Shown one piece after another: positions 9,605-39,158 of a DNA stretch of 64,000 nucleotides. A program made the position numbers and the translations under genes. A model generated the notes under the pieces. It was not told the DNA's origin. It searched no databases and saw nothing but the letters and a program-made list of their open reading frames with translations. Where the stretch lies: the NCBI GenBank assembly GCA_038831915.1, contig JAWBKB010000001.1:1-64000 (forward strand). Direction: 5' to 3'. Numbering within the stretch: the stretch's first letter is position 1; the number at the start of each line of letters is the position of its first letter. The stretch comes from Candidatus Caldarchaeum sp. (GTDB taxonomy: Archaea > Thermoproteota > Nitrososphaeria_A > Caldarchaeales > Caldarchaeaceae).

Positions 9605-9992
9605 CACCAACGTTCTAGTCTACGACACAGTTGAGGACAGCATGCACCATGACAAGGCTGTAAAAATCATAGACGCAGCTGGAGAGCTGGCCATACCGCC
9701 CATAGTTATCCATGAATATGTCTAGGTAATGCTGAGGTTTTCAGTATCACCAAAAACAATCTCAGTGAAGATTCATGAATATCTTGAAGACCCGAGGACG
9801 AAATACCTCGTCGAACCTCTCGTCGCAGTAGATGATGCGCTCAGAATGATGGAGGAAGATAAAGCGCCGGTAAAAGAGGTTAACGACTACATCATCCTTT
9901 CGTTAGCTTTGAGACATGGACTGACGCTCGCAACGTTTGACATCGAGCTGAGAAAGAGGGCGGCGGCTAGAAAGGTAAGCGTTATACCTTAA
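9588..9992 (+). pseudogene. PIN-domain toxin (VapC-like) with one in-frame amber stop
   Basis: MRLLPDTNVLVYD...IHEYV*VMLR...VNDYIILSLA...LATFD; TAG at 9723-9725, probably from TGG. Confidence 0.85.
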
Positions 9993-10139
9993 GTAATGTG
10001 AGCTTGCAAAAGCAGGCGAGGGTAGTTTTCCGCTGTTTTCAGAGTCAACCTGTTAACAATACTCACACAATCCGTAAATATACTATATTTTGGTTAATGT
10101 TAAATGCTTTGACGCCGATTTATGTATCGGAGTTTTTCC

Positions 10140-14814: not shown

Positions 14815-14864
14815 CTTTTATCCCCTGCCGAGCCGTCTAACTTTTTACCTTTATCCCACTTTTC

Positions 14865-16438: not shown

Positions 16439-17926
16439 CTACACGAGGTTTATTCTTACCAGGGCTTTGGCGTCGAACTTTTCGAGCTTGAATGAAACTA
16501 TTCCGGTGAAGGAGCTGAGGTCGATGATGTTTCGTCCTTCACGGATGATGTAATGCTCTGTGGAAGCTGGGTTCAGGGGAAGGGACAGGTCGTATTCGTT
16601 GACGGTGAGCACGTTGTCGCGACTGGCGTAAAACCTGAGAGATGGCGACCTGTACCCTGTTAACGGTATGCCGCCGAAACAATTTGTTCCAAAAGCTTCC
16701 CCGAAGTTTGGCAAATTATTGAATGGAACTGTAAAGACGGCTGATGGTGGAGGTCGTTGCAAAATTTCCTGATTTAGGACGATGAAGTCCTTTTCGCCGC
16801 TGTCGAAGGGCGTTACGCGTGGTCCTCCTGAATTAGGTGAGTTGTCTGTTGCGAGGAGAATTTTGTCAGCGACTTTTTCGACGCTTGTGATTCTCGCACC
16901 GACCGCCGCGACTATTTTTGCAACTGGAGGGGTGATGTAGATGAGAACGGAAGGGCCCGTGATGGTGTTGGTGTATCGGGAATATGTTTTGGCTTCATCG
17001 GTAATGGGTTGGTACACCGAATCGTGATGTGCGTTGTAGGGAACGAGTATGCCGCCGCCAGCGATTATTGAATTGGTTCTGAACGGGGCGTAAAAGTTGT
17101 GAAAGTCGAAAAGCCTGACAAACGTGAATCGTTCATCTAAGTAAGGATTGCCGACAAACAGACCTCCTCTAACGAAGGCGAACACTCTGTCATAGGCGGA
17201 AGTCACATCACCGACGGATGGCTTGAAATAAGAAGAGCCGTCCAAAGAGCCGCCTTCGAGCCCAAACGACGCCAACTTTTTCGAAACGAGGTCGTAAAAC
17301 CTGAATTCACGCAGGCCTTCGGAATAGTTTTCGCCGACCGCGAAACAAGCCATGTCGCGGAGCAAAGCCGCTTTCAAACATTTCTCGCCGAAAAGCTGCT
17401 CAACATGTCCCGAACGTCTGTCAAGCCTGTAAACACCGTTGTTGAAATGACCGTCTTCCTGCATCAAAAACAGTTTATCGTTGAAAGGGTCGTAGAGAAT
17501 GTCTCCGACTTCAGCCGCCCATTCATCTTCCCTATGAACCGATTCACTCCAAACCAGTCTAACTTCCATGTTATCGACATCATATTCGTGGACGTGTGAA
17601 TATTTGTGGAGGAAAACTATTTTCGAAGTGTTGTTATCCATGCGTTGGTATATCGCCGGTGCATTGACCCATCCGCCGAAGTAAATGTATTGGTCGACTG
17701 TTTCGACGGCGTTGTAGGTATCGCCTCCGGAGCGGGGCGCTTGGCCGATTTTATCGAACCTGTAGATTTTCACCGAGTCGCGGTGGATGAAATGTGATTC
17801 GGCGTCAAAGGCGACGGTGTAATAGAGAACGTCTCTGTGAAACCGTAATCCAAAAATTCCTCCGCTTCCCCATTCAGGGCCTTTACGTGGAGGAAATCTT
17901 TCCAATCGGTCGACAACCCAAGACAT
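16439..17926 (-). CDS. DUF2139-type protein associated with glycogen genes
   Basis: FPP..GPEWGSGGIFGL, SGGDTYNAV, FGGWV, NxxKYSH-like motifs; start placed at ATG 17926. Confidence 0.75.
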   Translation of the reverse strand: MSWVVDRLERFPPRKGPEWGSGGIFGLRFHRDVLYYTVAFDAESHFIHRDSVKIYRFDKIGQAPRSGGDTYNAVETVDQYIYFGGWVNAPAIYQRMDNNTSKIVFLHKYSHVHEYDVDNMEVRLVWSESVHREDEWAAEVGDILYDPFNDKLFLMQEDGHFNNGVYRLDRRSGHVEQLFGEKCLKAALLRDMACFAVGENYSEGLREFRFYDLVSKKLASFGLEGGSLDGSSYFKPSVGDVTSAYDRVFAFVRGGLFVGNPYLDERFTFVRLFDFHNFYAPFRTNSIIAGGGILVPYNAHHDSVYQPITDEAKTYSRYTNTITGPSVLIYITPPVAKIVAAVGARITSVEKVADKILLATDNSPNSGGPRVTPFDSGEKDFIVLNQEILQRPPPSAVFTVPFNNLPNFGEAFGTNCFGGIPLTGYRSPSLRFYASRDNVLTVNEYDLSLPLNPASTEHYIIREGRNIIDLSSFTGIVSFKLEKFDAKALVRINLV

Positions 17927-17984
17927 CGCGGTCCGGGCAACGGAAAAGCATCGAGGATAAATAGCCTTTCCAACATGTTGTCTA

Positions 17985-18257
17985 CTAAACTGTTTTCTTC
18001 CGCGGATACGACAAGATGAGAAAGCTTCCAACGACGTAGCCGGCGAGCCAGATGACTAGGTCAGCGGCGAGCAAACTCATGTCGACGGTCCAGAAATCAG
18101 TGGGTCCGGCAAAAGTGTTAACTGTGTGGACGGCGTAGGTCAGTGGAAAACCGTATCGGACGTGTACGAAATCGGGCCATGCGTGAAGTTGGCCGAAGGT
18201 AAGACACAAAACCATCAAGAAAAACCAGACGACGCTAAAAAGAAGAAAACGGGTCAA
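17985..18257 (-). CDS. Small two-TM membrane protein
   Basis: Two hydrophobic helices around a YGFPL motif. Confidence 0.65.
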   Translation of the reverse strand: MTRFLLFSVVWFFLMVLCLTFGQLHAWPDFVHVRYGFPLTYAVHTVNTFAGPTDFWTVDMSLLAADLVIWLAGYVVGSFLILSYPRKKTV

Positions 18258-18260: not shown

Positions 18261-18515
18261 CTATGCTTTTTGCTTGAGCTTGTTTTCGATGATTTCAACG
18301 ATTTCAGTGTCTGTTGGGAATCGTCGTTCCTTGTGACGGGAGAAAACAAGCTCTCCATCGACGTAGACTTCGAATATTCCGCCGTCGGTCGTGTCCAAAG
18401 TGACTGAGAAGTTTTTGTTTAACCGCTGACCATACCTGTTTAGGAGGTTTTTCGCCAAATCCATGGCCTGAGGCAGGTGTCCGCATGGAACACAGTAGAG
18501 GATTCGCACGTTCAT
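18261..18515 (-). CDS. Rdx family (SelT/SelW/SelH-like) protein, Cys form
   Basis: MNVRILYCVPCG...GGIFEVYVDGELVFSR...RFP; start at ATG 18515 within the longer ORF-track call. Confidence 0.9.
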   Translation of the reverse strand: MNVRILYCVPCGHLPQAMDLAKNLLNRYGQRLNKNFSVTLDTTDGGIFEVYVDGELVFSRHKERRFPTDTEIVEIIENKLKQKA

Positions 18516-18591
18516 GGCGTTTTCCACGAAAATGTAAGAAATATGTTTTATCTTGTTACGGAAAAAGTAATGAGGAAGCGGTGTTTCGTTT

Positions 18592-19014
18592 GTGTTAATG
18601 GATTTTAGATGGTTTCTATTGGTTGTGTTGACGCTGCTCGTTTGGGGTATTTGGGGCGTTGTGACCCGAATTGCTTCAGCTTCTCTCGGCTGGCGTGATA
18701 CAACAGCAATAGCCGCTATCGGACACATGGCTGTCGCTTTTCTATTCATCCTAGTATCCAGAGCAGACATAGTTCCGAAAAGCACAGTCTGGCCCCTCGC
18801 TTTGTTCGCAGGCTCGCTGGGATTCCTCGGAGCACTGACATTCTACATGGCCCTTAGCCTAAACCCGTCATCGATAGTGGTGGTGGCTACATCGCTTTAC
18901 CCACTCGTAACCCTCGTGATAGCTTTCTTCGTGCTCGGAGAAACCATTTCCGTTCGTCAAGCAGTTGGAGTGGGTTTGGCTTTGGCCGCGCTGGCGCTGA
19001 TATCCGGTGAATAA
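18592..19014 (+). CDS. EamA/DMT half-transporter
   Basis: WGIWG...SLYPLVT...LGE; five TM segments. Confidence 0.85.
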   Translation: MLMDFRWFLLVVLTLLVWGIWGVVTRIASASLGWRDTTAIAAIGHMAVAFLFILVSRADIVPKSTVWPLALFAGSLGFLGALTFYMALSLNPSSIVVVATSLYPLVTLVIAFFVLGETISVRQAVGVGLALAALALISGE

Positions 19015-19041: not shown

Positions 19042-20496
19042 TTGGTGAAAATTATGAAAATTTTACCCAACTTCGTCGATAATGAATTCATCGTGCCGAA
19101 GAGCGTCGAGACGATTCCTGTGAAAAACCCGGCCTTCGACACCGTCATCGCAGAAGCACCGATCTCGTCGGAAGAAGATGTGGAAAAAGCCGTTGAATCA
19201 GGTGTACAAGCCTTCGAAAAATTCCGCAAAACCACTCCATCTGACCGAGTTCAATACTTGATGAAGATACGTGAATATCTTGAAAGGGACACTGATGTTC
19301 TGGCACGTGTCTTGGTGGAAAATCATGGACGAACTTATGCGGAAGGAGTTGGAGAAGTCCGGCGAAGTTTGGAGAACGTCGAAGCCGCGGCCGCAATAGC
19401 TTACACGCTTGCAAAAGGCGAAAAAATGGTGAACATTTCTCCCGACATCGACCAAGAACTTATCCGCGAACCTCTGGGATGTTTCGCCGTCATAACACCG
19501 TTCAACATCCCGCTTCATGCATGGTCATCATACGTTCCCTACGCAATCGCTCTGGGATCAACTGTCGTGCTAAAACCCAGCGAGATAACGCCGATGGTCG
19601 CTAACGAAGTGGCTCGGATAATGAAGGACGCCGGCGTTCCACCGGGTATTATGAACGTGATTCACGGCGACGGCCGAGTTGCTGAAAAACTCGTGAAACA
19701 TCCGGAAATTCAAGGAGTTGGGTTCATCGGGTCAACCCGCACAGGCAAGATGCTTTACGAGCTTATGGCTAAAGAGGGAAAACGAGCTTCCATCAACGCG
19801 GGAGCGAAAAACCACATCGTCGTGACGCCTGACGCGGACATGGTGAAAACCGCTGAGGCAGTTGTTTCATCGTTTTTCGGAATGTCGGGGCAGAGATGTC
19901 TGGCTGGCTCGAATCTCGTCGTCCTGCGGGGTGCTGAAAAAGTTGTTGACCTGGTTGCGTCAAAATCACATCTCAGACTGGGGTACGGCATGGAAAAAGA
20001 TACGGAAATGGGGCCGATGGCTTCACGTCAAGGGCTTGAGAAAGCTCTCAGATACATCGAAATCGGCGAAGAATATGGGGATCTTCTCGTCGACGGCCGT
20101 TTGAACAAGCCGGTGAAACCGCTTAACGGATATTTCGTCGGACCCACGTTGTTCAAGAACGTTCCTCCCGATTCACCGCTCGCAAAGGAGGAGATTTTCG
20201 GCCCCGTTGCATCAATTTTATCCGTCGAAGATATCGAAGCCGCCATCGAACTAGTTAACAAGAACACGCCATATGGAAACGCAGCCTCTATTTTCACGTC
20301 GAACCCACGAACGGCGCGGCATTTTGTTCTAAACGTAAACGTCGGCAACGTGGGCGTTAACATCGGAGTTCCCCAACCAATGGCATATTTCCCGCTCGGC
20401 GGACGAAAGATGTCGTTTTTCGGAACAGCTCATAGCCGAGTCGACACGTTAAGATTCTTTACAGACCACAAAATCGTGACGACGAGGTGGTGGTGA
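19042..20496 (+). CDS. CoA-acylating semialdehyde dehydrogenase (MMSDH-like)
   Basis: ITPFN, LKPSE, FIGST, GAKNH, catalytic GQRCLA, EEIFGP, YGNAASIFT. Confidence 0.9.
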   Translation: MVKIMKILPNFVDNEFIVPKSVETIPVKNPAFDTVIAEAPISSEEDVEKAVESGVQAFEKFRKTTPSDRVQYLMKIREYLERDTDVLARVLVENHGRTYAEGVGEVRRSLENVEAAAAIAYTLAKGEKMVNISPDIDQELIREPLGCFAVITPFNIPLHAWSSYVPYAIALGSTVVLKPSEITPMVANEVARIMKDAGVPPGIMNVIHGDGRVAEKLVKHPEIQGVGFIGSTRTGKMLYELMAKEGKRASINAGAKNHIVVTPDADMVKTAEAVVSSFFGMSGQRCLAGSNLVVLRGAEKVVDLVASKSHLRLGYGMEKDTEMGPMASRQGLEKALRYIEIGEEYGDLLVDGRLNKPVKPLNGYFVGPTLFKNVPPDSPLAKEEIFGPVASILSVEDIEAAIELVNKNTPYGNAASIFTSNPRTARHFVLNVNVGNVGVNIGVPQPMAYFPLGGRKMSFFGTAHSRVDTLRFFTDHKIVTTRWW

Positions 20497-21102
20497 ATGG
20501 AAATCGCACCTGGCGCAGTTATCCGTAAAGTCGCTGTTTTCGTCGAAGACACGCTTGTGGAAAACGGCAAACCGTTGAGCAGACCAGTTAGGAAAAGTGC
20601 GGCCGCAGCGGTCATCAAAAACCCTTACGCCGGACAATTCGTTGAGGATTTGCAGGTTTTGATTGATGTTGGAGATTTTCTCGGTGGTTTTCTCGGAAAG
20701 AGAGCGAGGGAAGCATTAGGCATCTCGCCAGCCCAAGTCGAAAGCTATGGTAAAGCAGCAATTATCGGAACGGCTGGCGAGCTGGAACATGGCCACGCAA
20801 TACTGCATCCGAAGTTCGGAAGAGGTCTGCGTGAAGAATCCGGTGGACAGGACGTTTGCAAAGCCATTATCCCATCTGCTGCAAAAATCGGAGGACCCGG
20901 CACAGCTATCGACGTGCCACTACATTATAAGCGTGCGGCTTTCGTCAGAAGCCATTACGACGCGGTTGAAGTCCGAGTGCCTGACGCACCGCTTCCGGAC
21001 GAAATCGTCGTGATAGCGGCTTTGACGGATTCGGGAAGACCTTTACCGCGTATCGGCGGGCTTAAAAAAGAAGAAGTCAAAGGCGAGGACGGTCTTCGTT
21101 AA
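20497..21102 (+). CDS. AA_synth/DUF1185 family protein
   Basis: AVIKNPYAG, ESYGKAAIIG..GELEH, RSHYD, DAPLPDEI, GRPLPR. Confidence 0.88.
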   Translation: MEIAPGAVIRKVAVFVEDTLVENGKPLSRPVRKSAAAAVIKNPYAGQFVEDLQVLIDVGDFLGGFLGKRAREALGISPAQVESYGKAAIIGTAGELEHGHAILHPKFGRGLREESGGQDVCKAIIPSAAKIGGPGTAIDVPLHYKRAAFVRSHYDAVEVRVPDAPLPDEIVVIAALTDSGRPLPRIGGLKKEEVKGEDGLR

Positions 21103-22061
21103 AAGAACCATGGAAACACTTTTCTTTTGAGAAAGTCGGCGATTCCGTTTCGGAAAAACGCGAGCAGAAACACCAGAGTCAAGCCATAGAGAACCTGTGT
21201 CAAGGGTCCGAGGAACCGGAGGGCTTCGTTGACCACAGCGATGATGGCTGAGCCGATGTAGGGGCCGAGGAGAGTCGCCCTTCCTCCCAGAATCACGATA
21301 ATCTGGACAGGGATGTCGACCGATGCGAACGCGAAGTACGATGGTGCGATGAGCTGTGAAAACAATCCATACAGTGCACCTGCGAAGCCGAGAAGAGCAG
21401 AGGAAAACAACGCCGTCAAAGTCTTAACCTTTGAAACGTTTATCCCGATGAGTTCCGCGCTTGTTTCCTCGTCGATGATGCATCGATACGAATATCCTGT
21501 TCTTGTGTGGAATAGTAGGTAATAAGCGATGGCTGTAACGGCGAGAATTGTCATGGTGGCGACGTAGTAGTAGCGGAGGTTGTAGGGTAGAGCGTCTAAC
21601 GGCCCGAGGCTTACGCCTCTTATCCTGAAGCCAGTTTCTCCACCTGTGATGTTTGCGAGGCCGATCACCAAGTTGTTGAAGACAAGCGTGATGGCAAGTG
21701 TGAAAATTCCCGTAAATATTACGACGAGTTTTCTTCTCACCGATAGATAGCTGACAACCCATCCTAAGGCGGCGACAACTGCTGTGGACAGCAGAACGGC
21801 TTCGACTGGGCCCATTAGTCCGTCACGCAGGGAAATTCCTGTGATATATGCTCCGATTCCGATGAATGCGCCGACGCAGAGGAAAAGCTGTCGCGTGAAG
21901 CCGAAGAGGAAGTTGAAGCCGTATGCGAAGACCGTGAAGAAAGCCATCTGAGCAAGAATGAAGACCACGTATGGCGTGTTTATGAATATAAGCGGAACGA
22001 CGACGTAGATGGCTGCGAGGACGATTAAAGCCATGACACCGACTTGTTTCTTGTTCACCAT
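21099..22061 (-). CDS. HAAT (Liv-type) ABC transporter permease, LivM-like
   Basis: TGGETG and ILGGRATLLGP motifs; multi-TM. Confidence 0.9.
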   Translation of the reverse strand: MVNKKQVGVMALIVLAAIYVVVPLIFINTPYVVFILAQMAFFTVFAYGFNFLFGFTRQLFLCVGAFIGIGAYITGISLRDGLMGPVEAVLLSTAVVAALGWVVSYLSVRRKLVVIFTGIFTLAITLVFNNLVIGLANITGGETGFRIRGVSLGPLDALPYNLRYYYVATMTILAVTAIAYYLLFHTRTGYSYRCIIDEETSAELIGINVSKVKTLTALFSSALLGFAGALYGLFSQLIAPSYFAFASVDIPVQIIVILGGRATLLGPYIGSAIIAVVNEALRFLGPLTQVLYGLTLVFLLAFFRNGIADFLKRKVFPWFF

Positions 22062-22927
22062 CTTTCACCTACTATGCCGTAAGGCCTGACCAAAATCAAA
22101 ACCATGATGAATATCAGCAAAGCGACGTAGGCAAGATATGTTCCAATGAAGACGACGAGGAAGGTGTAGACAACGCCTATGACCAGGCCCGAGATAATGG
22201 TTCCGTAGACGCTGCGGATTCCTCCCACCACCGTAACGAGAAGACCGAGAATCGTAAACTCTATTCCGCTTTCAGGCGCTACTGTGGCTACAACGCTACG
22301 GATAATTCCAGCCAAGGTGACAAGGAACGCGCCGAGCAGAAAGACGAATAAACGGTATTTCTGAACACCGATTCCAACGATCAATGCGCCAGTTTCGTTC
22401 TGTGTAAGAGACCTGATTGCCATGCCGCTCCAAGTATTTTTGAGAAAGAGATAAACGCCGACGAGGATAGCGGCTGAAGCGATGCCTGTCACAAGTTGAG
22501 CCGTTCTAAAGGTTAAACCCATGAAATCAACCGTGGCTATTGGAAGGTTTATTGTGAGAAAAGCCAGCGGAAAACTCGTTATCAAAGCGCCGTGAACAAA
22601 AATCGAAAAAGCAAGAGTAATGTATAGGCCGAGTAGGGTTCTTTCTTCGCCTTCGAGGCGGTAAACGGGGGTGAGAAGGATTTTTTCGATAAAGGCCGCG
22701 GTAGCCATAGTGAATAGCACTCCCGCGACGAGGGCGAAAGGTAGAGGAACGTTGAATGCTTGTAGAAGAACGGCGGCGCCAACTGTGCAGATTACGAGAA
22801 GCTCACCGTGTGCGAGATTCAAAACACCCGCCAAGCCATAGATCAGCGTAAGACCTGCCGCGATCATCGAAAGAATTAATCCAAAGACAATCCCATCGAG
22901 GAAAAACAGAAGAAAACCCGCATCCAT
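22055..22927 (-). CDS. HAAT ABC transporter permease, LivH-like
   Basis: GLTLIYG..GVLNLAHGE, VVGGIRS, RPYGI. Confidence 0.92.
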   Translation of the reverse strand: MDAGFLLFFLDGIVFGLILSMIAAGLTLIYGLAGVLNLAHGELLVICTVGAAVLLQAFNVPLPFALVAGVLFTMATAAFIEKILLTPVYRLEGEERTLLGLYITLAFSIFVHGALITSFPLAFLTINLPIATVDFMGLTFRTAQLVTGIASAAILVGVYLFLKNTWSGMAIRSLTQNETGALIVGIGVQKYRLFVFLLGAFLVTLAGIIRSVVATVAPESGIEFTILGLLVTVVGGIRSVYGTIISGLVIGVVYTFLVVFIGTYLAYVALLIFIMVLILVRPYGIVGERW

Positions 22928-22928
22928 G

Positions 22929-23657
22929 CTACATACCCAGGTATTTCTTGACGAACGCGTGTGTTTTCAAGCCTTCTTCGATGTTGCCCTCGAAAACCAC
23001 TCGGCCGTTGGACAGAATGTATCCTCTGTCGCTTAAGGCTGCGGCTTGAGCGGTTCTCTGCTCCACCAGTAAAATCGACATCTCGGATTTTGTTTCCATA
23101 AGTTCGCGCAGTCCTTCGAAAATGTTTTTGACAAGCAGTGGGGCGAGGCCTGTCGAAGGCTCGTCGAGGAGAAGAAGCTTTGAATCGGTCATCAACGCTC
23201 TGCCGATGGCGAGCATCTGTTGTTCACCCCCGCTCATAGTTCCAGCCCTCTGAACCTGTCTTTGCTTTAGTTTTGGAAAAATTTTGAAAACAAGCTCCAA
23301 ATTTTCTTCAAGCTTTTTGCGAGCGCGTTTGTTAAAGGCTCCGAGAAGAAGGTTTTCCCGAACAGTCATGAGGGGGAAGAGCTCTTTCTCAGCCAAGGCC
23401 AGAGAGATTCCTTCCTCGACTATTTTTTCCGGAGGCAATCCGTCTATTCTTTTGCCGTCAAGCTGAATCGCGCCTTTGCGCGGTCTTATTAGGCCTGCGA
23501 TAGTTTTCAAGAGGGTTGTTTTGCCTGCTCCGTTGGGCCCGAGAACGGCTACAACCTCCCCCCTGTCAACATGCATAGAAACATTCCAGAGAACTTGGAT
23601 GTCGCCGTAGCCTGCATCTAAATTATCCACTTTTAGAAGACTCGACAATCTTCTCAC
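22929..23657 (-). CDS. HAAT ABC ATPase, LivF-like
   Basis: GPNGAGKTT, MSGGEQQML, LLLDEPS. Confidence 0.93.
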   Translation of the reverse strand: MRRLSSLLKVDNLDAGYGDIQVLWNVSMHVDRGEVVAVLGPNGAGKTTLLKTIAGLIRPRKGAIQLDGKRIDGLPPEKIVEEGISLALAEKELFPLMTVRENLLLGAFNKRARKKLEENLELVFKIFPKLKQRQVQRAGTMSGGEQQMLAIGRALMTDSKLLLLDEPSTGLAPLLVKNIFEGLRELMETKSEMSILLVEQRTAQAAALSDRGYILSNGRVVFEGNIEEGLKTHAFVKKYLGM

Positions 23658-24375
23658 CTAAATATGCTTCAATCACTTCTTGGTCGGCCACTATTTCCTC
23701 CGGCTTTCCCTCAGCTATTTTAGACCCCTGGTTTAAGACAGAGACTTTATCGGCGAGAGACGAAACCGCGCTAATAACGTGTTCTACCCAGATGATTGTC
23801 AATCCATATTCTTTTCGGATGTATCTGAAAAGGTCGATGGCGTCTTCTATTTCCGCCGTGTTTAACCCGCTCATGTATTCGTCGACCATCAAAACTTTGG
23901 GCCTCGATGCAAGAGCCCGAGCAAGCTCGACTTTTTTCCGTTCCTGTAGGTTGAGGACGCCTGCCTTCATATTCGCTTTGTCGGTCAGCTGAAGCTTGTC
24001 GAGGAGGGAGTCCACATGGCCTTCCAGCTCGTCCCGAGATATTCGGATGCTGTAAAGCCCTCCGACGTAAACGTTTTCCCACACAGTCAAATCTTTGAAA
24101 GGCCGCGGAATCTGAAGCGTTCTGCCGACGCCGAGCTTGAAAATTTCGTGGGAAGGCTTGCCCGTAATGTCGATGTTGTCTAGAAAAATTTTTCCAGAAG
24201 TCGGCTTGAAGACTCCGTTGATGATGTTGAAGAGAGTGGTTTTTCCCGCGCCGTTGGGCCCGATGATGGCCCTGATTTCACTTTCAGCGACTTCGAGGTT
24301 TACGTTTTTTAAAGCCGGTAGGCCGCCGAAATACTTAGTAACGTCCACGCATCTAACGATTACTGTCAACCCCAT
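23623..24375 (-). CDS. HAAT ABC ATPase, LivG-like
   Basis: FGGL.AL, GPNGAGKTT, VIEAYLG; AGGTGA SD-like sequence upstream. Confidence 0.93.
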   Translation of the reverse strand: MGLTVIVRCVDVTKYFGGLPALKNVNLEVAESEIRAIIGPNGAGKTTLFNIINGVFKPTSGKIFLDNIDITGKPSHEIFKLGVGRTLQIPRPFKDLTVWENVYVGGLYSIRISRDELEGHVDSLLDKLQLTDKANMKAGVLNLQERKKVELARALASRPKVLMVDEYMSGLNTAEIEDAIDLFRYIRKEYGLTIIWVEHVISAVSSLADKVSVLNQGSKIAEGKPEEIVADQEVIEAYLGEKIVESSKSG

Positions 24376-24390
24376 TTATCACCTAAAGAC

Positions 24391-24412
24391 GAAATAAAAA
24401 AGATAAGAAAAT
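24391..24412 (-). terminator. T-rich tract after the substrate-binding gene (possible partial archaeal terminator)
   Basis: ATTTTCTTATCTTTTTTATTTC on the minus strand between the SBP stop and the ATPase start. Confidence 0.4.
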
Positions 24413-24417
24413 GAGGA

Positions 24418-25632
24418 TTACTCAGCCGGTACGTATGGCTGGACGGGTGGAGATGTGTAAATGGTTTCAACTACCCAGTTGGCTCCGGGGTTTATGGGGC
24501 CTGGGGAGCCGCGTTTGATCACTGCAAGCCTCATGGCCGGTTTCTTGATTTCACCCCATTCAGTGTAGGATAGAGGCCATGCGAATATGGGATCGTTGAA
24601 TTCGCTTGTTCGGATGTGATTAGCAACTGTTACTGGGTTTGTTGACCGTGTTTTTTCAACAGCGTCAGCGATAGCCAACACGGTGACGTAGCCGGCGACG
24701 GCGTTGTGGTCGAAATATCTTCCATATTTCTGATAGAATTTGACCGCGAGTTCCCGGTATTCAGGTGCCTCGGTTCTTACGCACGTCGTCGTCACGAGTT
24801 TGTCGAGGCCGATGTCTCCGACTCCTCTAAGCATCAATTCAGGAGGTTGCACAGAAGCTATGTAGTATTGAGATGGGAACCCAAGCTCTATAGCCTGCTT
24901 CGTTATAGTTGGAAATCCCGGTGGATGACCGGTGAGAATCATGACTTCGGGCTGAAGCGGCTGAAGCTTACGCAGCACCGTGGTAAAGTCTGTTTCACCA
25001 AGCGGTGTTTCCTCAATCTGGAACTGAACGTTCGGAATTTCTTTCAGCCTTCTTTCAAGCACTTCTTTGATAGCGAAACCCCATTCATAGCTGGCGATGA
25101 TGACTCCGACGCGCCTGTATCCCATATCTTTGACAAAGTTGGCGAGGAGCTCGCCGTTGGTTGGTGCAGGCGGTAGACATGTCCTGAAGGTGAAACGCGA
25201 ATCTTTCGTCAAAATCGTGTGAGATCCAGCCGCTATGAGGAATAGAGGAACTTTAGCCTGTTCGGCTTCCGCGGTCAATACCGCTCCTATGCCGCTGGAA
25301 ATCGTTCCAACCACCGCGACAACCTTGTCTATTTCAGCCATTCTTTTGAAGATAGACACCGCTTCTTTCGCGTCGTTCTTCTCATCTGCTTCGATCAATA
25401 CGACTCGAGCACCGAGAACACCTCCCTTGGCGTTGATTTCTTCGACGGCGAACCTCATCCCGTCAAGAGTGTAGGCGCCATAGATGGCAAAAGGGCCCGT
25501 CAAGGGCACCAAGGCACCAATTTTTACTTCAGAAACACCGAGGCTTTGCTGCGAAAGAAACAGAAAAGCTGTCGAAGCGACGGCCGCGACGACAACGAGG
25601 GCGACAATCACCACCACAACTGTTTTTTTCAC
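24418..25632 (-). CDS. HAAT ABC substrate-binding protein, LivK-like, N-terminal membrane anchor
   Basis: KIGALVPLTG...AVEEINAKGGVLG, FTFRT. Confidence 0.92.
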   Translation of the reverse strand: MKKTVVVVIVALVVVAAVASTAFLFLSQQSLGVSEVKIGALVPLTGPFAIYGAYTLDGMRFAVEEINAKGGVLGARVVLIEADEKNDAKEAVSIFKRMAEIDKVVAVVGTISSGIGAVLTAEAEQAKVPLFLIAAGSHTILTKDSRFTFRTCLPPAPTNGELLANFVKDMGYRRVGVIIASYEWGFAIKEVLERRLKEIPNVQFQIEETPLGETDFTTVLRKLQPLQPEVMILTGHPPGFPTITKQAIELGFPSQYYIASVQPPELMLRGVGDIGLDKLVTTTCVRTEAPEYRELAVKFYQKYGRYFDHNAVAGYVTVLAIADAVEKTRSTNPVTVANHIRTSEFNDPIFAWPLSYTEWGEIKKPAMRLAVIKRGSPGPINPGANWVVETIYTSPPVQPYVPAE

Positions 25633-25659
25633 AAGTCTCCCTGCCCGCTGCTCCGTAAT

Positions 25660-26655
25660 TTAAATCTTTACATTTTGTACAGACGGAAACAATTCGTCGA
25701 CGATTTTGCGAAGCTGCTGCATCTCGAACGTAACAGGATTCAGAACAATCCAGTCAACGCCTTCAAGCGACTTGACACGTTCCTTGATTTTTTCAGCAAT
25801 TTCTTCAACCGTTCCGTAGAGGTAGAATTTTTTCCAGTAGTCAAGGTTCATTCCTGAATAGAGTGAAAATCGTTTCACTGCTTCTGTGTCGCTGTCTCCT
25901 GGATTCTTCAAGTAAACGAAGTTCGAATAGATCTTTGTGATTTTGTAAGGGTCTTTTCCCAGATCAGCCGCGTATTTCTTAACCTTCTCCCAGTCTTGTG
26001 CAGCCATTTCAGGCGTCGAACTCGAATGCGGAATCCATCCATCAGCAAATTTAGCGATGCGGAACAGCACTTTGTCGATTCCTTTAGCCGCGGCGCCGTA
26101 GAGAATTTCGTGTGGCTGGCTTCCTCCACCAATCCAGATAGGTGGATGCGGTTTCTGAGCTGGCTTGGGTTCGAGAACCAAGTCTTTTACGTTGAAGAAT
26201 TTGCCTTCGAAAGTGATTTTATCCTCTGTCCAAAGTTTTTTCAACAGTTGCAGATATTCGTCCATTATTGTTCCGCGTTTTTCGAGAGGCGTGTTGAGAA
26301 GGTTGAATTCGTCAGGGTTCCATCCGACGCCTGCGCCGAGCACAAATCTCCCGCCCGAATACACGTCGAGTGAAGCAATTTGTTTAGCGACGAGGTAGGG
26401 ATTTCTGAAAGGTAGCACCATGATCATAGGGCCTATCAGTGCTTTTTTTGTCGCTGCAGCCACAAACGACAACGCTATCAAAGGGTCGTGCCAACTGGTT
26501 GAATATGCGGGCCTCGAGGTAAGCAGATGATCTATGACGAAAAATCCTTCAACTCCCATGCGTTCGGCTTCCGCGACGTAGTTCTTCAAAGTCTCCGCGG
26601 ATGAAAATTCTCCGGGCCTGGCGTATGTAGGTAAACGTAGACCTAACTTCATCAA
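25660..26655 (-). CDS. LLM-class (luciferase-like, probably F420-dependent) oxidoreductase
   Basis: DH, LPFRNP...AKQIASLD..SGGRFVLGAGVGW, PKPAQKPHPPIWIGG, ADGW. Confidence 0.9.
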   Translation of the reverse strand: MMKLGLRLPTYARPGEFSSAETLKNYVAEAERMGVEGFFVIDHLLTSRPAYSTSWHDPLIALSFVAAATKKALIGPMIMVLPFRNPYLVAKQIASLDVYSGGRFVLGAGVGWNPDEFNLLNTPLEKRGTIMDEYLQLLKKLWTEDKITFEGKFFNVKDLVLEPKPAQKPHPPIWIGGGSQPHEILYGAAAKGIDKVLFRIAKFADGWIPHSSSTPEMAAQDWEKVKKYAADLGKDPYKITKIYSNFVYLKNPGDSDTEAVKRFSLYSGMNLDYWKKFYLYGTVEEIAEKIKERVKSLEGVDWIVLNPVTFEMQQLRKIVDELFPSVQNVKI

Positions 26656-27836
26656 TGTGCACCTTCGGGCAGTTTTGCTTCGCCGCTTGTTTTTATTTGT
26701 TTAGAAGGCGGAGGTGTCATACGGCTGCGACCAACTCTAACAACTCCATCAATCATGACCATGGCGATGCCGGGTATGTCGCCGATTGAAAATGCTTCGA
26801 CAGCGTCGTTCGCGACTGAGCCATATGGCGCGTCCATTACCACTAGGTCTGCTGGACGTCCCGGCTCCAGAACTCCTTCTTTGAGTCCGAAAGCCTTTGC
26901 GGTGTTTCCAGTGGCTGCGCAGACAGCTTTCTCAGGCGCGAGTCCCGTGTTTGATGCTATGAACGAAATAGTTCTGATGATGCCGAGAGGAATGACGCCT
27001 GTGCCCGAAGGTGAGTCTGTTCCAATTATCAGCCGATTTAACTCGTTTCTGGATTCGAGGATTTTGACCGTTTCCACCATGGATTTGAAGTTTCCACATT
27101 GGACGACTTCGATCGCTGATTTCGTGTTTTCGATAATGGTTCGGATGTCGGGGATTGACGGGGATGTGGGGCCTCCGTTGATGTGAGAAACAACGTCAGG
27201 CTGAACTTTGAGAACGACTTGTGCATTGATTACTGTGCTTCCTGGGATAGATGCTCCACCTGTGTGAATCACGACTTTCATGCCGTGTTTCTGGGCAAGT
27301 CGGACAAGATCGGCTGCTTCGTCGGGGTCTTGAACAGTTCCCAGCCCCACTTCGCCGACAAGCCAAACACCTTTCGCAACCACTTCTTGGAAATCGGCTT
27401 CGACAAGCCCTTTTTCCAGTAGGAGGGCGCCTGCGTGAACTTTCGCGCCGAGAGGTCTAAGGTTTTTGAAGGTTTTGTGTGCGAGAACAGCGAGTGCTTT
27501 CGCCGCTTCTTTGTCGCCCCGAGGCCTGCCAGGAAGATGCACTTCTCCCGCTGAAACGAAGGACGTTACTCCGCCGTTGACGTAGGCTTCGATGAAGCCC
27601 AACGTGTTCTGGCGTGGTGTGAAGTCGCCGAAAACGGGATGAACATGTGAGTCAATCAGTCCGGGAGTTACGGTCATCTGGTTTACGTCGAAGACTCCGT
27701 CGGCGGGCTTTGAAATATCCCAGCCGATTTCCTCTATTACCCCGTTGCTGATGTAAATGCTGTCGCCGTCTGCAAATGGTTTATCGAGTTTTCCTAAAAG
27801 AATTTTTCCCGCGTTTTTTATGAGAATAGTTTTCAT
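26652..27836 (-). CDS. ena: Amidohydrolase, close homologue of enamidase (nicotinate catabolism)
   Basis: PGLIDSHVH..GDFTPRQ, SAGEVHLPGRP, LEKGL, GEVGLG, HTGGASIPGS, SHINGGPT, GTDSPSGTGVIPLG, GDIPGI, SRMTPP. These follow Eubacterium barkeri enamidase motif by motif as I recall it. Confidence 0.85.
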   Translation of the reverse strand: MKTILIKNAGKILLGKLDKPFADGDSIYISNGVIEEIGWDISKPADGVFDVNQMTVTPGLIDSHVHPVFGDFTPRQNTLGFIEAYVNGGVTSFVSAGEVHLPGRPRGDKEAAKALAVLAHKTFKNLRPLGAKVHAGALLLEKGLVEADFQEVVAKGVWLVGEVGLGTVQDPDEAADLVRLAQKHGMKVVIHTGGASIPGSTVINAQVVLKVQPDVVSHINGGPTSPSIPDIRTIIENTKSAIEVVQCGNFKSMVETVKILESRNELNRLIIGTDSPSGTGVIPLGIIRTISFIASNTGLAPEKAVCAATGNTAKAFGLKEGVLEPGRPADLVVMDAPYGSVANDAVEAFSIGDIPGIAMVMIDGVVRVGRSRMTPPPSKQIKTSGEAKLPEGAH

Positions 27837-30157
27837 AAATTTCCGCTCTGAAAGTCGTTTTTATTTGTTGCGACGCTCCATAAATAATGCGGCGAAAGAT
27901 GTGATTTTGTTATCCGTATTTTTGTGGCGTCTTCAACTGCGTTAGCAATGGCTGCGGCGACAGGTATGAGCGGGCCTTCGCCCATTCCTTTAGCACCTAA
28001 TTCAGAAAACAGCGAGGGATTTTCAACATGATCAACGATTATCTCGGGTGTTTCCAAGCTGGTGGGTAAAAGATAGTCGCTTAGAGATGAGGTCAACAAT
28101 ATTCCATCACGGTCATAGACCATTTTTTCGTAAAGTGATGCGCCTAATCCCTGCAAAACACCGCCGATTATCTGCCCTTCGACGATTGATTTGTTCAGGA
28201 TTTTTCCACAGTCGTGAACAGCCACGTATCTTATAACTTTGACCTGATATGTGTCGGGGTCGATTTGCACGATTGCGACGTGAGCGGAGTTACCGTATGT
28301 GGCTGACATGTTGATTTCGCCTGGGCCTCCTGTGTTGAACGTCGGGAAATCGTAAAAAACTTCAGCCTGCAGAGTTCCGTGATTGCTCCGCGTCCGCACC
28401 ACATCCCGGTAAGCTTTCGCCGCAAGTTGAGCAAACGTCAGAGACATATCTGTTCCTTTGAGGACAATTTTTCCATCGTTTATTTCCAAGTCTTTTTCCG
28501 ATGCTTCGAGTAGGTTGGCGGCGAGCGAAAGAATTTTACCTCTTAGGATTTCACATGATTTTTTCACGGCGGCAACGGTTATTACGCTGAATCTGCTGGC
28601 CCATGTGCCGCCGTAAGGGCTTGGATAAATCATGTCGGAGTCGCCGAAAACTATTCTTACATTTTCGGGTCTAACACCCAGAGTTTCCATGACCACTTGG
28701 GTCAGAACGGTTTCGTGACCTTGTCCCTGAGGTATTGAAGCGGCGTAAACTGTTATCGTTCCAGACTCTTCAAGCCTGACGATTGCTCCTTCACCTGAAC
28801 CCGATGTTTCGAGTTCGGGAAACAAGAGCTTGTTTCGGGCCAAGTTAGTGACCGCGGGCTCAACCACGCAGGCCACGCCAATGCCAATATGGGGCAAGCC
28901 TTTGTATTTCTCGGGCTGAGCCAGCTCCCATGCCTTTAACAACACGTCGCGGTAGTTTCCACCGTCGTAAAGACTTCCGAACACCGTGCGGTACGACATC
29001 ATCTCACCGTCGACCATGTTCTTCAACCTGATTTCAACAGGCGATAGCCCAAGTTCTTTCGCCGCGATGTCCATCATTCTCTCGAGAACAAAGTATGCTT
29101 GCTGACATCCATAACCACGGACAGGGCCAGTCGGACATTTGTTCGTATAAACCACTTTCAACTCAACTTCGACGTTGCGGATATCATAGCAGCCCAGGTA
29201 AGTCATTAGAGACCGTATGACGCCGCCAGGGTCGGGTAAACGGGCGAAGGCCCCTACGTCCTCGATGAAACGTGTGCGGTATGCTGTGACTTTTCCCGTT
29301 TTTTCAAGCGCCATCTCAGCGAAAGTGACGCGGTTGGAGTTATGGGCCATCGCGGTTAAATGTTCCCGACGCGTTTCAACCCATTTAACGGGTCTTCCCA
29401 GCCGGAGAGCGGTGTAAGCGACGAGGAACACATATGGATAAAGCATTATCTTGACGCCGAACCCGCCTCCAATGTCTTTCTCAATGAACCGGAGCTTTTC
29501 AGACCTGATTCCAAGCGAATCGGCTATAATTTTTTTGAAAAGGAGAGGAGTTTGCTGGTTGTCGTAAATAGTTAGCGAGCCGTCCTTTGAAGGCACCGCG
29601 ACTACTCCCGAAGTCTCTATTGGTGATGAAACATACCTGTCGAATGCAAATTTTTCTTTGATTATTTTGTCGGCGTTGGCGAATGCTTCTTGGACTTTTC
29701 CGAATGAAAATTTTCGTTTGACCGCGAGGTTGGTTCCCAACTGTTCGTGAATAAGCGTTGATGTTTGGAGTGCTTCTTCGGGGTCGAGAACTGCGTCCAA
29801 AGGCTCGTATTCGACGGCAACATGCTCTGCCAAGTCGAATGCTTCTTCCCGTGATTCCGCGACCACCGCTGCGACAGCTTCGCCGTAGTAACGCACTTTG
29901 TCAACCGCTATTCCGTAGTAATGCACGTTTTTCATGAGTGTGTAAAGGGGCTTTGTATGCGATGCGATGGTTTTTCCGGTGAATACGTGAGCGCCTCTCC
30001 GAACAGCGTCCTCGTAGTCAATGTGTTTGAGCCTGGCGTGGCTATAAGGGCTTCTGACAAAAACTAAATGAAGCATTTTTGGAAAAACGATGTCATCGAC
30101 GTAAACGGCTTGACCCTTTAGGAACCGGGGGTCTTCGACTCTTTTCGATAAGGACAA
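27833..30157 (-). CDS. Xanthine dehydrogenase-family molybdopterin large subunit (CutA/CoxL/NdhL-like, not form I CODH)
   Basis: KRVED.RFL.G, IGGGFGVK, active-site loop PVRGYG, QGQGHET, ASR, GAKGMGE. Confidence 0.92.
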   Translation of the reverse strand: MSLSKRVEDPRFLKGQAVYVDDIVFPKMLHLVFVRSPYSHARLKHIDYEDAVRRGAHVFTGKTIASHTKPLYTLMKNVHYYGIAVDKVRYYGEAVAAVVAESREEAFDLAEHVAVEYEPLDAVLDPEEALQTSTLIHEQLGTNLAVKRKFSFGKVQEAFANADKIIKEKFAFDRYVSSPIETSGVVAVPSKDGSLTIYDNQQTPLLFKKIIADSLGIRSEKLRFIEKDIGGGFGVKIMLYPYVFLVAYTALRLGRPVKWVETRREHLTAMAHNSNRVTFAEMALEKTGKVTAYRTRFIEDVGAFARLPDPGGVIRSLMTYLGCYDIRNVEVELKVVYTNKCPTGPVRGYGCQQAYFVLERMMDIAAKELGLSPVEIRLKNMVDGEMMSYRTVFGSLYDGGNYRDVLLKAWELAQPEKYKGLPHIGIGVACVVEPAVTNLARNKLLFPELETSGSGEGAIVRLEESGTITVYAASIPQGQGHETVLTQVVMETLGVRPENVRIVFGDSDMIYPSPYGGTWASRFSVITVAAVKKSCEILRGKILSLAANLLEASEKDLEINDGKIVLKGTDMSLTFAQLAAKAYRDVVRTRSNHGTLQAEVFYDFPTFNTGGPGEINMSATYGNSAHVAIVQIDPDTYQVKVIRYVAVHDCGKILNKSIVEGQIIGGVLQGLGASLYEKMVYDRDGILLTSSLSDYLLPTSLETPEIIVDHVENPSLFSELGAKGMGEGPLIPVAAAIANAVEDATKIRITKSHLSPHYLWSVATNKNDFQSGNL

Positions 30158-31071: not shown

Positions 31072-31929
31072 ATGGCTAAATTTTTCTACGTAGCACAGGG
31101 CGCGGCAGCCGGCTTTTTCTTCGGAACAGCCTCTATCTTCGTACGTCTGCTGCCTGGTCTCGACGCCTTCACAATCGTCGTATTCCGCGTATTGATTGCT
31201 TCGGCTTTTCTATGGATAATTGGGTTGACGTTTTTCAGGGCTGAAATTTTGAAAGTTTTCAGACGCTTTGGATTTCAGCTTTTCATCGTTGGGTTTCTTC
31301 TTGGTATGCATCTGATCTTTTTTGTTCTCGGAGTCCAGAACACTTCGGTTGTCAACGCGACTACCTTGGTGAACACGACGCCAGCGATGGCTCTAGTTAT
31401 TGGCTGGGCGTTCAAATGGATTAGACCGTCGAACATAAACATCATCGGTCTTGCTCTGGCCGTTGCCGGCTCTGCAGTCATGACATTAGGCGAATTCTCC
31501 ACACAGTCTCAGAGTTTTCTCGGAGATGTTTACGCGGTTTTGGGAGCTTTTTTCTGGGCGCTTTACCTCGTTTTCGGCAAAAAAGTGAGAGAAGAGGTGA
31601 ACATCTTCGCGGTTCTCGGGCCTTTATACATGTTTACTTCGCTGCCAGCAGTGGCTGTTGCTTGTGGATTGGGCGAAGGCCTCGCTATGCCTAAACAAGA
31701 CCAAATCTATCCTTTGCTTGGACTGGCTTTTTTCCCCACGGTCCTAGGTCACGGGCTTCAGTTTTCAAGCCTCCGCGGCCTCCATCCCTACCAGGCTTCT
31801 TCTCTAGCTCTTCTCGAACCAATTGTCGCTACAATCATAGCGGCAATTCTTCTCGCTGAAATCGCCGATCCAATCACCTACGTCGCCGCAGCTATCGTAA
31901 TAACTGGAATCTATCTTGTCATTAGGTAG
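31072..31929 (+). CDS. DMT/EamA transporter
   Basis: Ten TM segments, two EamA repeats, LLEP motif. Confidence 0.88.
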   Translation: MAKFFYVAQGAAAGFFFGTASIFVRLLPGLDAFTIVVFRVLIASAFLWIIGLTFFRAEILKVFRRFGFQLFIVGFLLGMHLIFFVLGVQNTSVVNATTLVNTTPAMALVIGWAFKWIRPSNINIIGLALAVAGSAVMTLGEFSTQSQSFLGDVYAVLGAFFWALYLVFGKKVREEVNIFAVLGPLYMFTSLPAVAVACGLGEGLAMPKQDQIYPLLGLAFFPTVLGHGLQFSSLRGLHPYQASSLALLEPIVATIIAAILLAEIADPITYVAAAIVITGIYLVIR

Positions 31930-32855
31930 TCTAGTAAAATTTTCGAAGCCGCTGCGTCCTGTACAGCTAGGCCCACGCTTTTGAACAAGGTGATTTCGTC
32001 CTCTTTCTCCCTGCCGGGCTTAAGGCCTGCCGCGATTTCACCGATTTCTGCGTAAATGTTTTCGAACTTCATCAACCCGAGCTCTATAGGTTTCAACACG
32101 TCGCCAGCTTCTTCCTTAACTGCTTCACGCGAATCAACTACGAGTTTGGAACGAGCTGTCAGAACTGGGTCTATTTCAACCATTTCAGGTGTGTAGCCGC
32201 CTATAGCGGAAATATGAATTCCCGATTTCACCCATCCATTAGAGACTACGGGTGTTTTGGAAGTCGTCACAGTCACGATGACGTCCGACCATTTTACCAG
32301 CTCTTCGGCGGAAGCGGCTGGCTTAACATCGTATCCCATCCGACCTATTTCTGCGATGAATTCCTCCAACCGCCGCCGGTCGACATCATAGACCATGAAT
32401 TTCGAGCCGGGATAGTTAGCGGCGACAACCTTGAGCTGCCATCGGGCCTGATAACCCGCGCCGATGATTCCCACTTTGGTGAAATGTCTGGGTGCGAGAT
32501 GTTTTATGGACACAGCAGTTGCGGCAGCCGTTCGAAGGCCCGTGAGTGCTCGCGCTTCGGCGACGAACTTTGGAACACCTGTTTCAGCCTCGAGAACGAT
32601 GACGGTTGCGTTGATTGTTGGGATGCCTTTGTCGACGTTTCCGGGGTAAACCGTCACAAGCTTCAAGCTGAAGATTTTCATGTCGGGAACGAGGCACGGC
32701 ATCATCAAAATGTCCCCGTCTTTTGCTGGAATCCTTGACCGAACAGGCATCACGACCTTGCCCAAGCTATATAGGATGTAAGCACGTTCAACGGCTTCAA
32801 CAACTTTCAAAGGGTCAACGAGCTCCGCAACATCCGCATCTGTCAAAACTTTCAT
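31911..32855 (-). CDS. Ornithine cyclodeaminase / mu-crystallin family protein (archaeal alanine dehydrogenase-like)
   Basis: KLVTVYPGN, LTGLRTAA, GAGYQA, FKSVGLAVQD; start placed at ATG 32855. Confidence 0.9.
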   Translation of the reverse strand: MKVLTDADVAELVDPLKVVEAVERAYILYSLGKVVMPVRSRIPAKDGDILMMPCLVPDMKIFSLKLVTVYPGNVDKGIPTINATVIVLEAETGVPKFVAEARALTGLRTAAATAVSIKHLAPRHFTKVGIIGAGYQARWQLKVVAANYPGSKFMVYDVDRRRLEEFIAEIGRMGYDVKPAASAEELVKWSDVIVTVTTSKTPVVSNGWVKSGIHISAIGGYTPEMVEIDPVLTARSKLVVDSREAVKEEAGDVLKPIELGLMKFENIYAEIGEIAAGLKPGREKEDEITLFKSVGLAVQDAAASKILLDYLMTR

Positions 32856-32930
32856 ACGAGAAAACGGCTGAGGCTGTTTATATTTGTGTGGAAAGCACAT
32901 GTATAAAAGCGGTTTCAGCAACTGGATGAT

Positions 32931-39156: not shown

Positions 39157-39158
39157 AT

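Follow-up and report, generated by a model that had tools for sequence, protein, structure and literature searches.

We analyzed a stretch of 64 kb at the start of contig C1 (JAWBKB010000001.1) in the genome of the hot-spring archaeon Candidatus Caldarchaeum sp. (GCA_038831915.1; 1.59 Mb, 34 contigs, 95.6% complete), which we call the window, and observed at 19042-30157 a cluster of ten genes built around an enamidase (Ena). We consider it likely, with a probability of roughly 65%, that this cluster serves the uptake and catabolism of nicotinate, or of a very close pyridine carboxylate, by a variant of the reductive route of the Eubacterium barkeri/Azorhizobium type. The association of the genes suggests that an oxidoreductase of the luciferase-like LLM family, probably dependent on F420, most likely takes the place of the usual iron-sulfur (Fe-S) ring reductase Hnr.

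The minus strand of the cluster encodes the large subunit of a molybdenum hydroxylase (MoL), Ena, LLM and the genes of an ABC importer. An aldehyde dehydrogenase (ALDH) resembling methylmalonate-semialdehyde dehydrogenase (MMSDH) and a DUF1185/AA_synth protein are encoded on the plus strand (Table 1). We observed MoL, Ena and LLM in the same order in all 11 Caldarchaeum-like loci; DUF1185 and ALDH were also present in nine of them, and the remaining two were cut by contig ends. Because the arrangement recurs in every one of these loci as far as the contigs reach, we do not attribute it to chance.

The amidohydrolase belongs to the enamidase family

The preliminary description of this DNA, made from the letters alone, had placed the amidohydrolase in the enamidase family, and this was borne out. 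The protein gave a full-length match to the E. barkeri enamidase 2VUN (E 1.5e-119, residues 3-380 of 394, roughly 55% identity), and the next solved amidohydrolase matched at only E 2.1e-6. It belongs to the same family as enamidases from bacterial nicotinate clusters, and relatives at 53-55% identity were located in unmistakable clusters of this kind. Judging by its sequence, the product is expected to be an enamidase orthologue, which would convert 1,4,5,6-tetrahydro-6-oxonicotinate into 2-formylglutarate and NH3.

The bacterial loci differ in composition. The locus of Sporomusa acidovorans reads Ena-DUF1185-Hgd-Hmd-DmdA-DmdB-Mgm-Mii-MutL, which we take to be the fermentation gene set of E. 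barkeri. The order in an uncultured bacterium (L012) is ALDH-TRAP transporter-CoxS-CoxM-CoxL-Ena-503-aa 4Fe-4S protein-ApbE-like-DUF1185, and a further locus (L011) has MoL divided into two genes, presumably in the manner of NdhL/NdhM of E. barkeri. We took the 4Fe-4S protein of L012 as a putative Hnr because of its position, its Fe-S domain and its flavin-transferase partner. Loci with such a gene are called Hnr-type below, and those with the LLM gene are called LLM-type.

We aligned 88 enamidases from all cluster types. There were 54 invariant columns and 46 more that were at least 95% conserved. H64, H66, E162, H218 and D274 were invariant and H191 was conserved to at least 95%; we assume that these HxH, Glu, His, His and Asp positions serve metal binding and the active site. 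No column of the 88-sequence alignment separated LLM-type from Hnr-type clusters. The family is large (at least 8000 clusters of 90% identity at E <= 1e-30), and automatic annotation already labels some of its archaeal members 'enamidase'. The E. barkeri sequence was absent from the alignment and from the tree, the link to the characterised enzyme being the 2VUN alignment. A quick tree placed Caldarchaeum and Actinomycetota enamidases as sisters (SH-aLRT 89), a grouping that we do not rely on.

A separate observation concerns the Archaeoglobi archaeon JdFR-42 (L031), a second archaeal lineage, where an enamidase of 56% identity (9989-11152) is accompanied by genes resembling Hnr and ApbE, and LLM is absent. 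The enamidase grouped with those of Firmicutes and Desulfovibrionaceae in the tree, and its cluster is of the classical type.

An LLM oxidoreductase occurs in place of Hnr

We surveyed the surroundings of enamidase genes in 93 loci, 14 of which came from a single-protein query and 79 from the best 80 of at least 570 relatives. Neighbours were scored by tblastn, and 92 of the 93 loci had a usable Ena. For two high-GC loci (L049, L054), in which long spurious open reading frames (ORFs) were called, tblastn coordinates were used in place of ORF calls. Hnr without LLM was found in 43 loci, LLM without Hnr in 27, neither in 22, and both in none. The LLM-type loci comprised 11 archaeal ones and 16 from Actinomycetota/Acidimicrobiia and Rokubacteria/Methylomirabilota.

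The reverse survey started from LLM and covered the best 80 of 520 relatives, again chosen by similarity. Ena was present in 66 of these 80 loci, DUF1185 in 72 and Hnr in none. Among the 44 loci whose flanks reached 5 kb or more in both directions, Ena was found in 43, DUF1185 in 43 and MoL in 40. This survey added Chloroflexia, Terriglobia, Binatia and the Caldarchaeales genus Pelearchaeum. The counts from both directions agree with the earlier expectation that the genes co-occur elsewhere; they describe a pattern and not independent events, as the two sets share contigs and many kin.

The replacement was also seen at the level of whole genomes. The LLMs of five of five bacterial loci were reciprocal best hits of the window LLM, with 172-324 bits as against at most 109 for paralogues. 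We found no Hnr-like or ApbE-like gene in the window genome by tblastn with queries from L012, L011 and L014 at E <= 1e-3, and no Hnr-like gene in five LLM-type bacterial genomes with an Hnr-like query. Conversely, five Hnr-type genomes yielded no LLM orthologue, one of them having paralogues only (at most 57 bits). Chloroflexia LLM loci contained an Ndh-like MoL together with CoxS and CoxM, 42-45% identical to their counterparts in the Hnr-type locus L012; therefore both cluster types appear to be tied to the same first step.

The window LLM scored 203.8 bits with TIGR03619, an F420-class subfamily model with a cut-off of 166.9. CofE and Fno (F420:NADP oxidoreductase) were over their cut-offs in the window genome, and CofD was detected in 12 of the 12 other genomes of the genus, in 11 of them over the cut-off. 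Among bacteria, CofD exceeded the cut-off in three of five LLM-type genomes and gave a split match in a fourth, as against none of five Hnr-type genomes. In the available text of PMC8498797, F420H2-dependent reductases are described as acting on alkenes, enamines, enones and enoates, and Actinobacteria, Chloroflexi and Rokubacteria are listed among F420 producers or encoders. F420 is the probable cofactor of LLM.

With Hnr absent from the genome, LLM is the best candidate for the 6-hydroxynicotinate reductase step. The preliminary description had read the cluster as an E. barkeri-type route; the enamidase and its partners agree with that, and the reductase part has to be changed, Hnr not being found and LLM, which it had listed with no role, standing instead. 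We further propose, at about even odds for the proposal as a whole, that LLM represents a new family of F420H2-dependent 6-hydroxynicotinate reductases which displaced the oxygen-sensitive Hnr among lineages that use F420, in five phyla or more, and that DUF1185 is a hitherto overlooked, near-obligatory participant in the enamidase step. The lineages meant are Caldarchaeales, Rokubacteria/Methylomirabilota, Chloroflexota, Actinomycetota and some Acidobacteriota.

The aldehyde dehydrogenase and DUF1185

The ten best solved matches of ALDH were all CoA-acylating MMSDHs, with MSDH of B. subtilis (1T90) at 5.9e-101. The alignment of the two proteins paired GQRCLAG with GERCMAC and GEVRRS with GEVGRG, and GAKNH was present in both. 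The cluster enzyme thus carries the hallmarks of MMSDH, namely an Arg before the catalytic Cys, an upstream Arg, and GAKNH instead of a Glu-containing motif. We presume from the MSDH literature that these correspond to the Arg-Cys pair, the Arg that binds the substrate carboxylate and the missing general-base Glu. A quick tree joined the ALDHs of Caldarchaeum clusters with 14 Ena-adjacent ALDHs of Hnr-type anaerobes (SH-aLRT 99) and left canonical MMSDH outside this clade.

Hgd is the consumer of 2-formylglutarate in E. barkeri. Near Ena, ALDH was found in 30 loci, Hgd in 6 and both in none, and as the two are mutually exclusive, the simplest interpretation is that ALDH is an alternative consumer of the same compound. 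By analogy with the MSDH-type chemistry on a 2-substituted malonate semialdehyde, it would convert 2-formylglutarate into glutaryl-CoA and CO2.

The window contains a second ALDH (56173-57657, plus strand), which scored 473.7 bits with the MMSDH model TIGR01722, over its cut-off. The two ALDHs share 47% identity, and the second one probably serves as the housekeeping methylmalonate-semialdehyde dehydrogenase.

DUF1185 is the steadiest partner of the enamidase, and the preliminary description had passed over it in this role. It was the most constant neighbour of Ena (71 of 92 loci), present in 39 of 43 Hnr-type and 24 of 27 LLM-type loci. Its solved relatives were 2QTP (3.3e-65) and 3BYQ (9.3e-33). 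As it accompanies both downstream branches, in six of six Hgd loci and 29 of 30 ALDH loci, it should act at or before 2-formylglutarate.

Proposed pathway

From the gene identities, their conservation and their co-occurrence we infer the substrate and the reaction of each step. The Liv-type ABC system would import the substrate, and MoL, probably with FAD and 2Fe-2S subunits encoded elsewhere, would produce 6-hydroxynicotinate. LLM, probably with F420H2, would then reduce the C4=C5 bond in the stead of Hnr and yield 1,4,5,6-tetrahydro-6-oxonicotinate. The enamidase would open the ring to give 2-formylglutarate and NH3, with DUF1185 acting here or before, and the MMSDH-like ALDH would oxidatively decarboxylate 2-formylglutarate to glutaryl-CoA.

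Evidence against this pathway and alternative explanations

Several observations weigh against catabolism of nicotinate by this pathway, and we present them together with the alternatives on which they bear. The case for nicotinate itself as the substrate is least secure at the Mo-hydroxylase. MoL, a proposed nicotinate 6-hydroxylase, is full length, and its best solved matches were CoxL (8UEM, 1.6e-124) and quinoline 2-oxidoreductase (1T3Q, 3.2e-112), with an oxidoreductase from Sulfolobus and Kdh, an enzyme of the nicotine pathway, also among its closest relatives. The match to nicotinate dehydrogenase Ndh of E. barkeri (3HRD) was only 2.8e-41, which places MoL nearer to CoxL/Qor than to Ndh. 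We found no genes for the FAD (M) or 2Fe-2S (S) subunits beside MoL among the genes of the window, a gap that the preliminary description had not noted. Unlike a nicotinate dehydrogenase, the large subunit stands alone in the cluster, and S and M genes are located on other contigs.

The genome encodes 13 paralogous Mo-hydroxylase large subunits, five small (2Fe-2S) and five medium (FAD) subunits. Those outside the window lie on contigs C2, C3, C4, C8-C11, C13 and C25, and nine large subunits are unpartnered. An M+S pair at C2:79398-80757 has no adjacent large subunit and could be a partner for the lone ones. MoLs of the five bacterial LLM-type loci best matched other paralogues of the window genome (reciprocal best hits 0 of 5), and therefore the hydroxylase seems to have been recruited separately in different lineages.

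Liv-type ABC genes stand beside Ena in many phyla, and their substrate-binding proteins (SBPs) were just 22-29% identical to the window SBP. The archaeon HR01 has a different Liv-type system at a different position of the same cluster. The importer of the proteobacterial cluster is called a 'putative nicotinate ABC transporter' in the available text of PMC3511419. The window SBP is a proposed binder of nicotinate or a related acid.

These features of MoL and SBP would also fit the same chemistry acting on another N-heterocyclic acid that ends as a cyclic enamide, such as a pyridine bearing a hydroxyl or amide group, another isomer of pyridine carboxylate, or a pyridone released when NAD is broken down. 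In that case the CoxL-like hydroxylase and the SBP would set the specificity, which agrees with the position of MoL in the CoxL/quinoline-oxidoreductase/6-hydroxypseudooxynicotine-dehydrogenase group and with its lack of orthology to the MoLs of other Ena clusters. However, the enamidases had no type-specific columns, LLM-type clusters of Chloroflexia use the Ndh-like MoL+S+M of Hnr-type nicotinate clusters, and the cluster ALDH groups with ALDHs of the latter. We consider this alternative unlikely, though deserving of attention, and prefer nicotinate or a very close pyridine carboxylate.

The assignment of MoL has a bearing on other genomes. Papers on Aigarchaeota/Caldarchaeales genomes (e.g. 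PMC6053391), in the text available, read CoxL paralogues as putative CO dehydrogenases. CO dehydrogenase models scored MoL far below their cut-offs. Neither of the CoxL signature motifs that the Aigarchaeota papers quote, AYXCSFR and AYRGAGR, was seen in the MoL translation when it was inspected by eye, no pattern search having been made; AYXCSFR is given as the active-site signature of form I CoxL in the accessible parts of PMC6053391 and PMC4681859. CoxL paralogues of Caldarchaeales are not necessarily CO dehydrogenases, and if our proposal is true, at least one of the many Aigarchaeota 'CO dehydrogenase' paralogues would be an N-heterocycle hydroxylase.

The cofactor of LLM is another difficulty. 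CofD was not found in the window genome, nor were the FO synthase genes CofG and CofH, and CofH exceeded its cut-off in none of the 13 genomes of the genus. The AF2 model of LLM (pLDDT 83.9) had F420-dependent Mer as its top Foldseek match, with FMN monooxygenases including RutA nearly equal, and the best PDB sequence match was 8CBB, a luciferase-like FMN enzyme (1.3e-19). Foldseek and PDB sequence searches thus did not separate F420 from FMN users for this protein. As a side observation, the presence of CofE, Fno and CofD with no detectable CofG and CofH may reflect salvage of FO, a synthase that has diverged, or a shortcoming of the method.

On this basis LLM might be an FMN-dependent monooxygenase in the style of RutA, SsuD or luciferase, which would oxygenate or cleave the ring or a side chain, while the substrate of Ena would be made otherwise. 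The near tie in the structural search, the match to 8CBB and the missing FO synthase speak for it. On the other hand, LLM scored over the cut-off of the F420-class model, it strictly replaces Hnr in otherwise matching clusters, CofD follows the LLM type, and no flavin reductase gene was present among the window genes scanned. We regard an FMN-dependent monooxygenase as improbable and keep a probably F420-dependent reductase as the function of LLM. The reactions proposed for all LLM-type clusters rest on association, which also counts against the pathway.

Further points concern the downstream part. The best model of the cluster ALDH was TIGR01722, with 411.6 bits under the cut-off of 448.5. 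The preliminary reading of this enzyme as MMSDH-type fits the motifs and the exclusivity with Hgd, and the step from 2-formylglutarate stays a proposal. Ena-adjacent ALDHs of actinobacteria belong to another clade and best matched the second ALDH of the window, and most LLM-type loci of Rokubacteria had neither ALDH nor Hgd within 10 kb. Two Pelearchaeum loci (L116, L117) had MoL, Ena and LLM at 60-72% identity, with DUF1185 and ALDH not found in their flanks.

Uptake and catabolism of amino acids, with a Liv importer for branched-chain amino acids, an MMSDH for valine, a DUF1185 protein of 'amino acid synthesis' and a generic amidohydrolase, agrees with the family names, with the nearest solved relatives of the SBP, which bind Leu/Ile/Val (3TD9, 6e-26), and with the amino-acid role that the accessible text of the DUF1185 structure paper (PMC2954203) guessed from neighbouring Liv-type genes, but it is very improbable, as the amidohydrolase is specifically an enamidase, a canonical MMSDH over the cut-off is encoded elsewhere in the window, and DUF1185, LLM and ALDH follow the enamidase and nicotinate genes across phyla.

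Comparison with known systems

Alhapel and co-workers are said to have described in 2006 the upper part of nicotinate fermentation in E. barkeri as NdhFSLM, Hnr and Ena. The window cluster resembles this pathway in its enamidase, in the Mo-hydroxylase gene directly upstream of Ena, and in that it fits the order of chemistry, i.e. hydroxylation, reduction and hydrolysis. It differs in having an archaeal host, whose genome lacks detectable Hnr-like and ApbE-like genes and has LLM in that position. Furthermore, the window MoL is a single CoxL-like protein and not a split NdhL/NdhM, no F and S genes adjoin it, and an MMSDH-like ALDH is found rather than Hgd with the B12-dependent branch.

The available text of PMC3511419 reports a matching proteobacterial cluster, of the aerobic route, in A. 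caulinodans, B. japonicum and strain SG-6C (Bradyrhizobiaceae), in which genes for the initial three steps stand together with those of an ABC importer and of conserved uncharacterised proteins, as they would in the window. Liv-type ABC genes and DUF1185 also adjoin Ena in the Bradyrhizobium and Afipia loci of our survey. According to the same text, A. caulinodans proceeds from 1,4,5,6-tetrahydro-6-oxonicotinate (THON) 'via glutarate', and carbon would similarly pass through a C5 dicarboxylate in our scheme. In contrast to the window, which has LLM, these clusters keep Hnr (42-44% identity to the Hnr-like protein of L012). They have no MMSDH-like ALDH within 10 kb, whereas the window ALDH should give glutaryl-CoA directly.

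The cluster ALDH shares with CoA-acylating MMSDH (1T90; TIGR01722) the Arg-Cys pair, the upstream Arg and the GAKNH stretch. It departs from it in its score below the cut-off, in its place off the canonical branch with other enamidase-linked ALDHs, and in its proposed substrate, which bears carboxyethyl for methyl. LLM is like the F420-dependent LLM hydride transferases (Mer, Fgd, Adf; TIGR03619 Rv2161c subfamily) in its TIM-barrel LLM fold, in passing the cut-off of TIGR03619, in having F420-dependent Mer as top structural match and in the hosts, which come from F420-encoding lineages. It would differ from them in its reaction, as our literature search gave no member that reduces a pyridone ring.

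Novelty and significance

The reductive nicotinate route and the enamidase are already known. In the searchable literature we found no description of the reductase, of an MMSDH-like step linked to the enamidase, of DUF1185 as a constant partner or of an archaeal host. We know of no experimentally described nicotinate catabolism in archaea. The preliminary description had likewise known of no described archaeal pathway from uptake to a CoA ester, and our searches on archaeal nicotinate catabolism found none in the text that the sources make available. The term 'nicotin' did not occur in the available text of the Aigarchaeota/Caldarchaeales genome papers (including PMC6053391 and PMC4681859), whose supplements may list such genes. 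Literature searches returned no paper that joins 6-hydroxynicotinate with luciferase-like enzymes, and with F420 only an unrelated review.

If the proposal is true, thermophilic archaea would be able to take vitamin B3 all the way to glutaryl-CoA, by a route including a 2-formylglutarate dehydrogenase derived from MMSDH. The cluster offers a concrete substrate for an F420-class LLM subfamily and would set DUF1185 in a defined pathway; both are large families. It also suggests how aerobes and F420 users may run the reductive nicotinate route without a ferredoxin-dependent Fe-S reductase. An F420H2-dependent reductase that dearomatises a pyridone ring would also interest the field of biocatalysis.

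Gene arrangement, expression and flanking genes

The ten ORFs form two convergent, tightly packed operons whose ends overlap by 4 bp at 21099-21102. The two plus-strand genes abut. Minus-strand neighbours, from 30157 down to 21099, are spaced by -4, -4, +27, +42, -35, +1 and -7 bp, the Ena ORF sharing 4 bp with the end of MoL and 4 bp with the beginning of LLM. The family of each ORF was confirmed by Pfam and NCBIfam profile searches, so that the ORF listing and the profiles agree with the gene families, positions and operons given in the preliminary description. The same is true of the five-gene Liv-type importer, which has one Peripla_BP_6, two BPD_transp_2 and two ABC_tran proteins in one operon.

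Table 1. Positions and profile matches of the ten genes of the cluster in the window.
Gene product	Position	Strand	Length (aa)	Domains and matches
Mo-hydroxylase large subunit (MoL)	27833-30157	-	774	Ald_Xan_dh_C+MoCoBD_1+MoCoBD_2
Enamidase (Ena), expected orthologue	26652-27836	-	394	Amidohydro_1; 2VUN match
LLM oxidoreductase	25660-26655	-	331	Bac_luciferase; TIGR03619
Substrate-binding protein (SBP), Liv/HAAT-type ABC importer	24418-25632	-	404	Peripla_BP_6 2.1e-51
ABC ATPase, LivG-like	23623-24375	-	250	ABC_tran + BCA_ABC_TP_C; LivG model 208.9 bits, below cut-off
ABC ATPase, LivF-like	22929-23657	-	242	ABC_tran; LivF model 239.1 bits, below cut-off
ABC permease, LivH/UrtB-like	22055-22927	-	290	BPD_transp_2 1.5e-27
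ABC permease, LivM/UrtC-like	21099-22061	-	320	BPD_transp_2 4.2e-30
MMSDH-like aldehyde dehydrogenase (ALDH)	19042-20496	+	484	Aldedh; TIGR01722 best model
DUF1185/AA_synth protein	20497-21102	+	201	PF06684 2.3e-69

One metatranscriptome run contained contigs identical to a part of the SBP gene (24500-25575), to the LLM/Ena junction (26151-26753) and to parts of Ena and MoL. This is a hint that the cluster is transcribed, weakened by its origin in a single run that possibly included DNA. ALDH, DUF1185 and the permeases had no coverage in that run, which is uninformative either way. A second RNA run matched only short conserved stretches of the ATPases at 90-95% identity, and we do not count it as evidence of transcription.

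The flanks of the cluster are unrelated to it and encode, among others, glycogen metabolism, DUF2139, Rdx, SIMPL, EamA, an OCD-family protein and a subtilase. No regulator gene was found among the flanking genes scanned. On one side (31911-32921 and 37019-41525) there are two OCD/mu-crystallin paralogues, an acyl-CoA dehydrogenase, a PaaK-like CoA ligase (445 bits, below the cut-off) and a FAH-family hydrolase. The acyl-CoA dehydrogenase (37019-38182) was considered as a glutaryl-CoA dehydrogenase; it scored 159.5 bits as against a cut-off of 470, and we make no claim for it. Three Caldarchaeum-like loci preserve the order of these genes next to the cluster, from which we draw no link to the nicotinate genes.

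A glycogen-type cluster on the other side (10122-16436) consists of a nucleotidyl transferase, a branching-enzyme-like alpha-amylase/CBM48 protein, a phosphorylase-like glycosyltransferase and a starch-synthase-like glycosyltransferase, and is followed by a DUF2139 archaeal protein (16439-18031). Two ORFs overlap on opposite strands at 18261-19014, an Rdx-family one (174 aa, minus) and a half-length EamA-like one (140 aa, plus). Only one of the two is likely to be real, and a contig of an RNA library spans 18613-18840.

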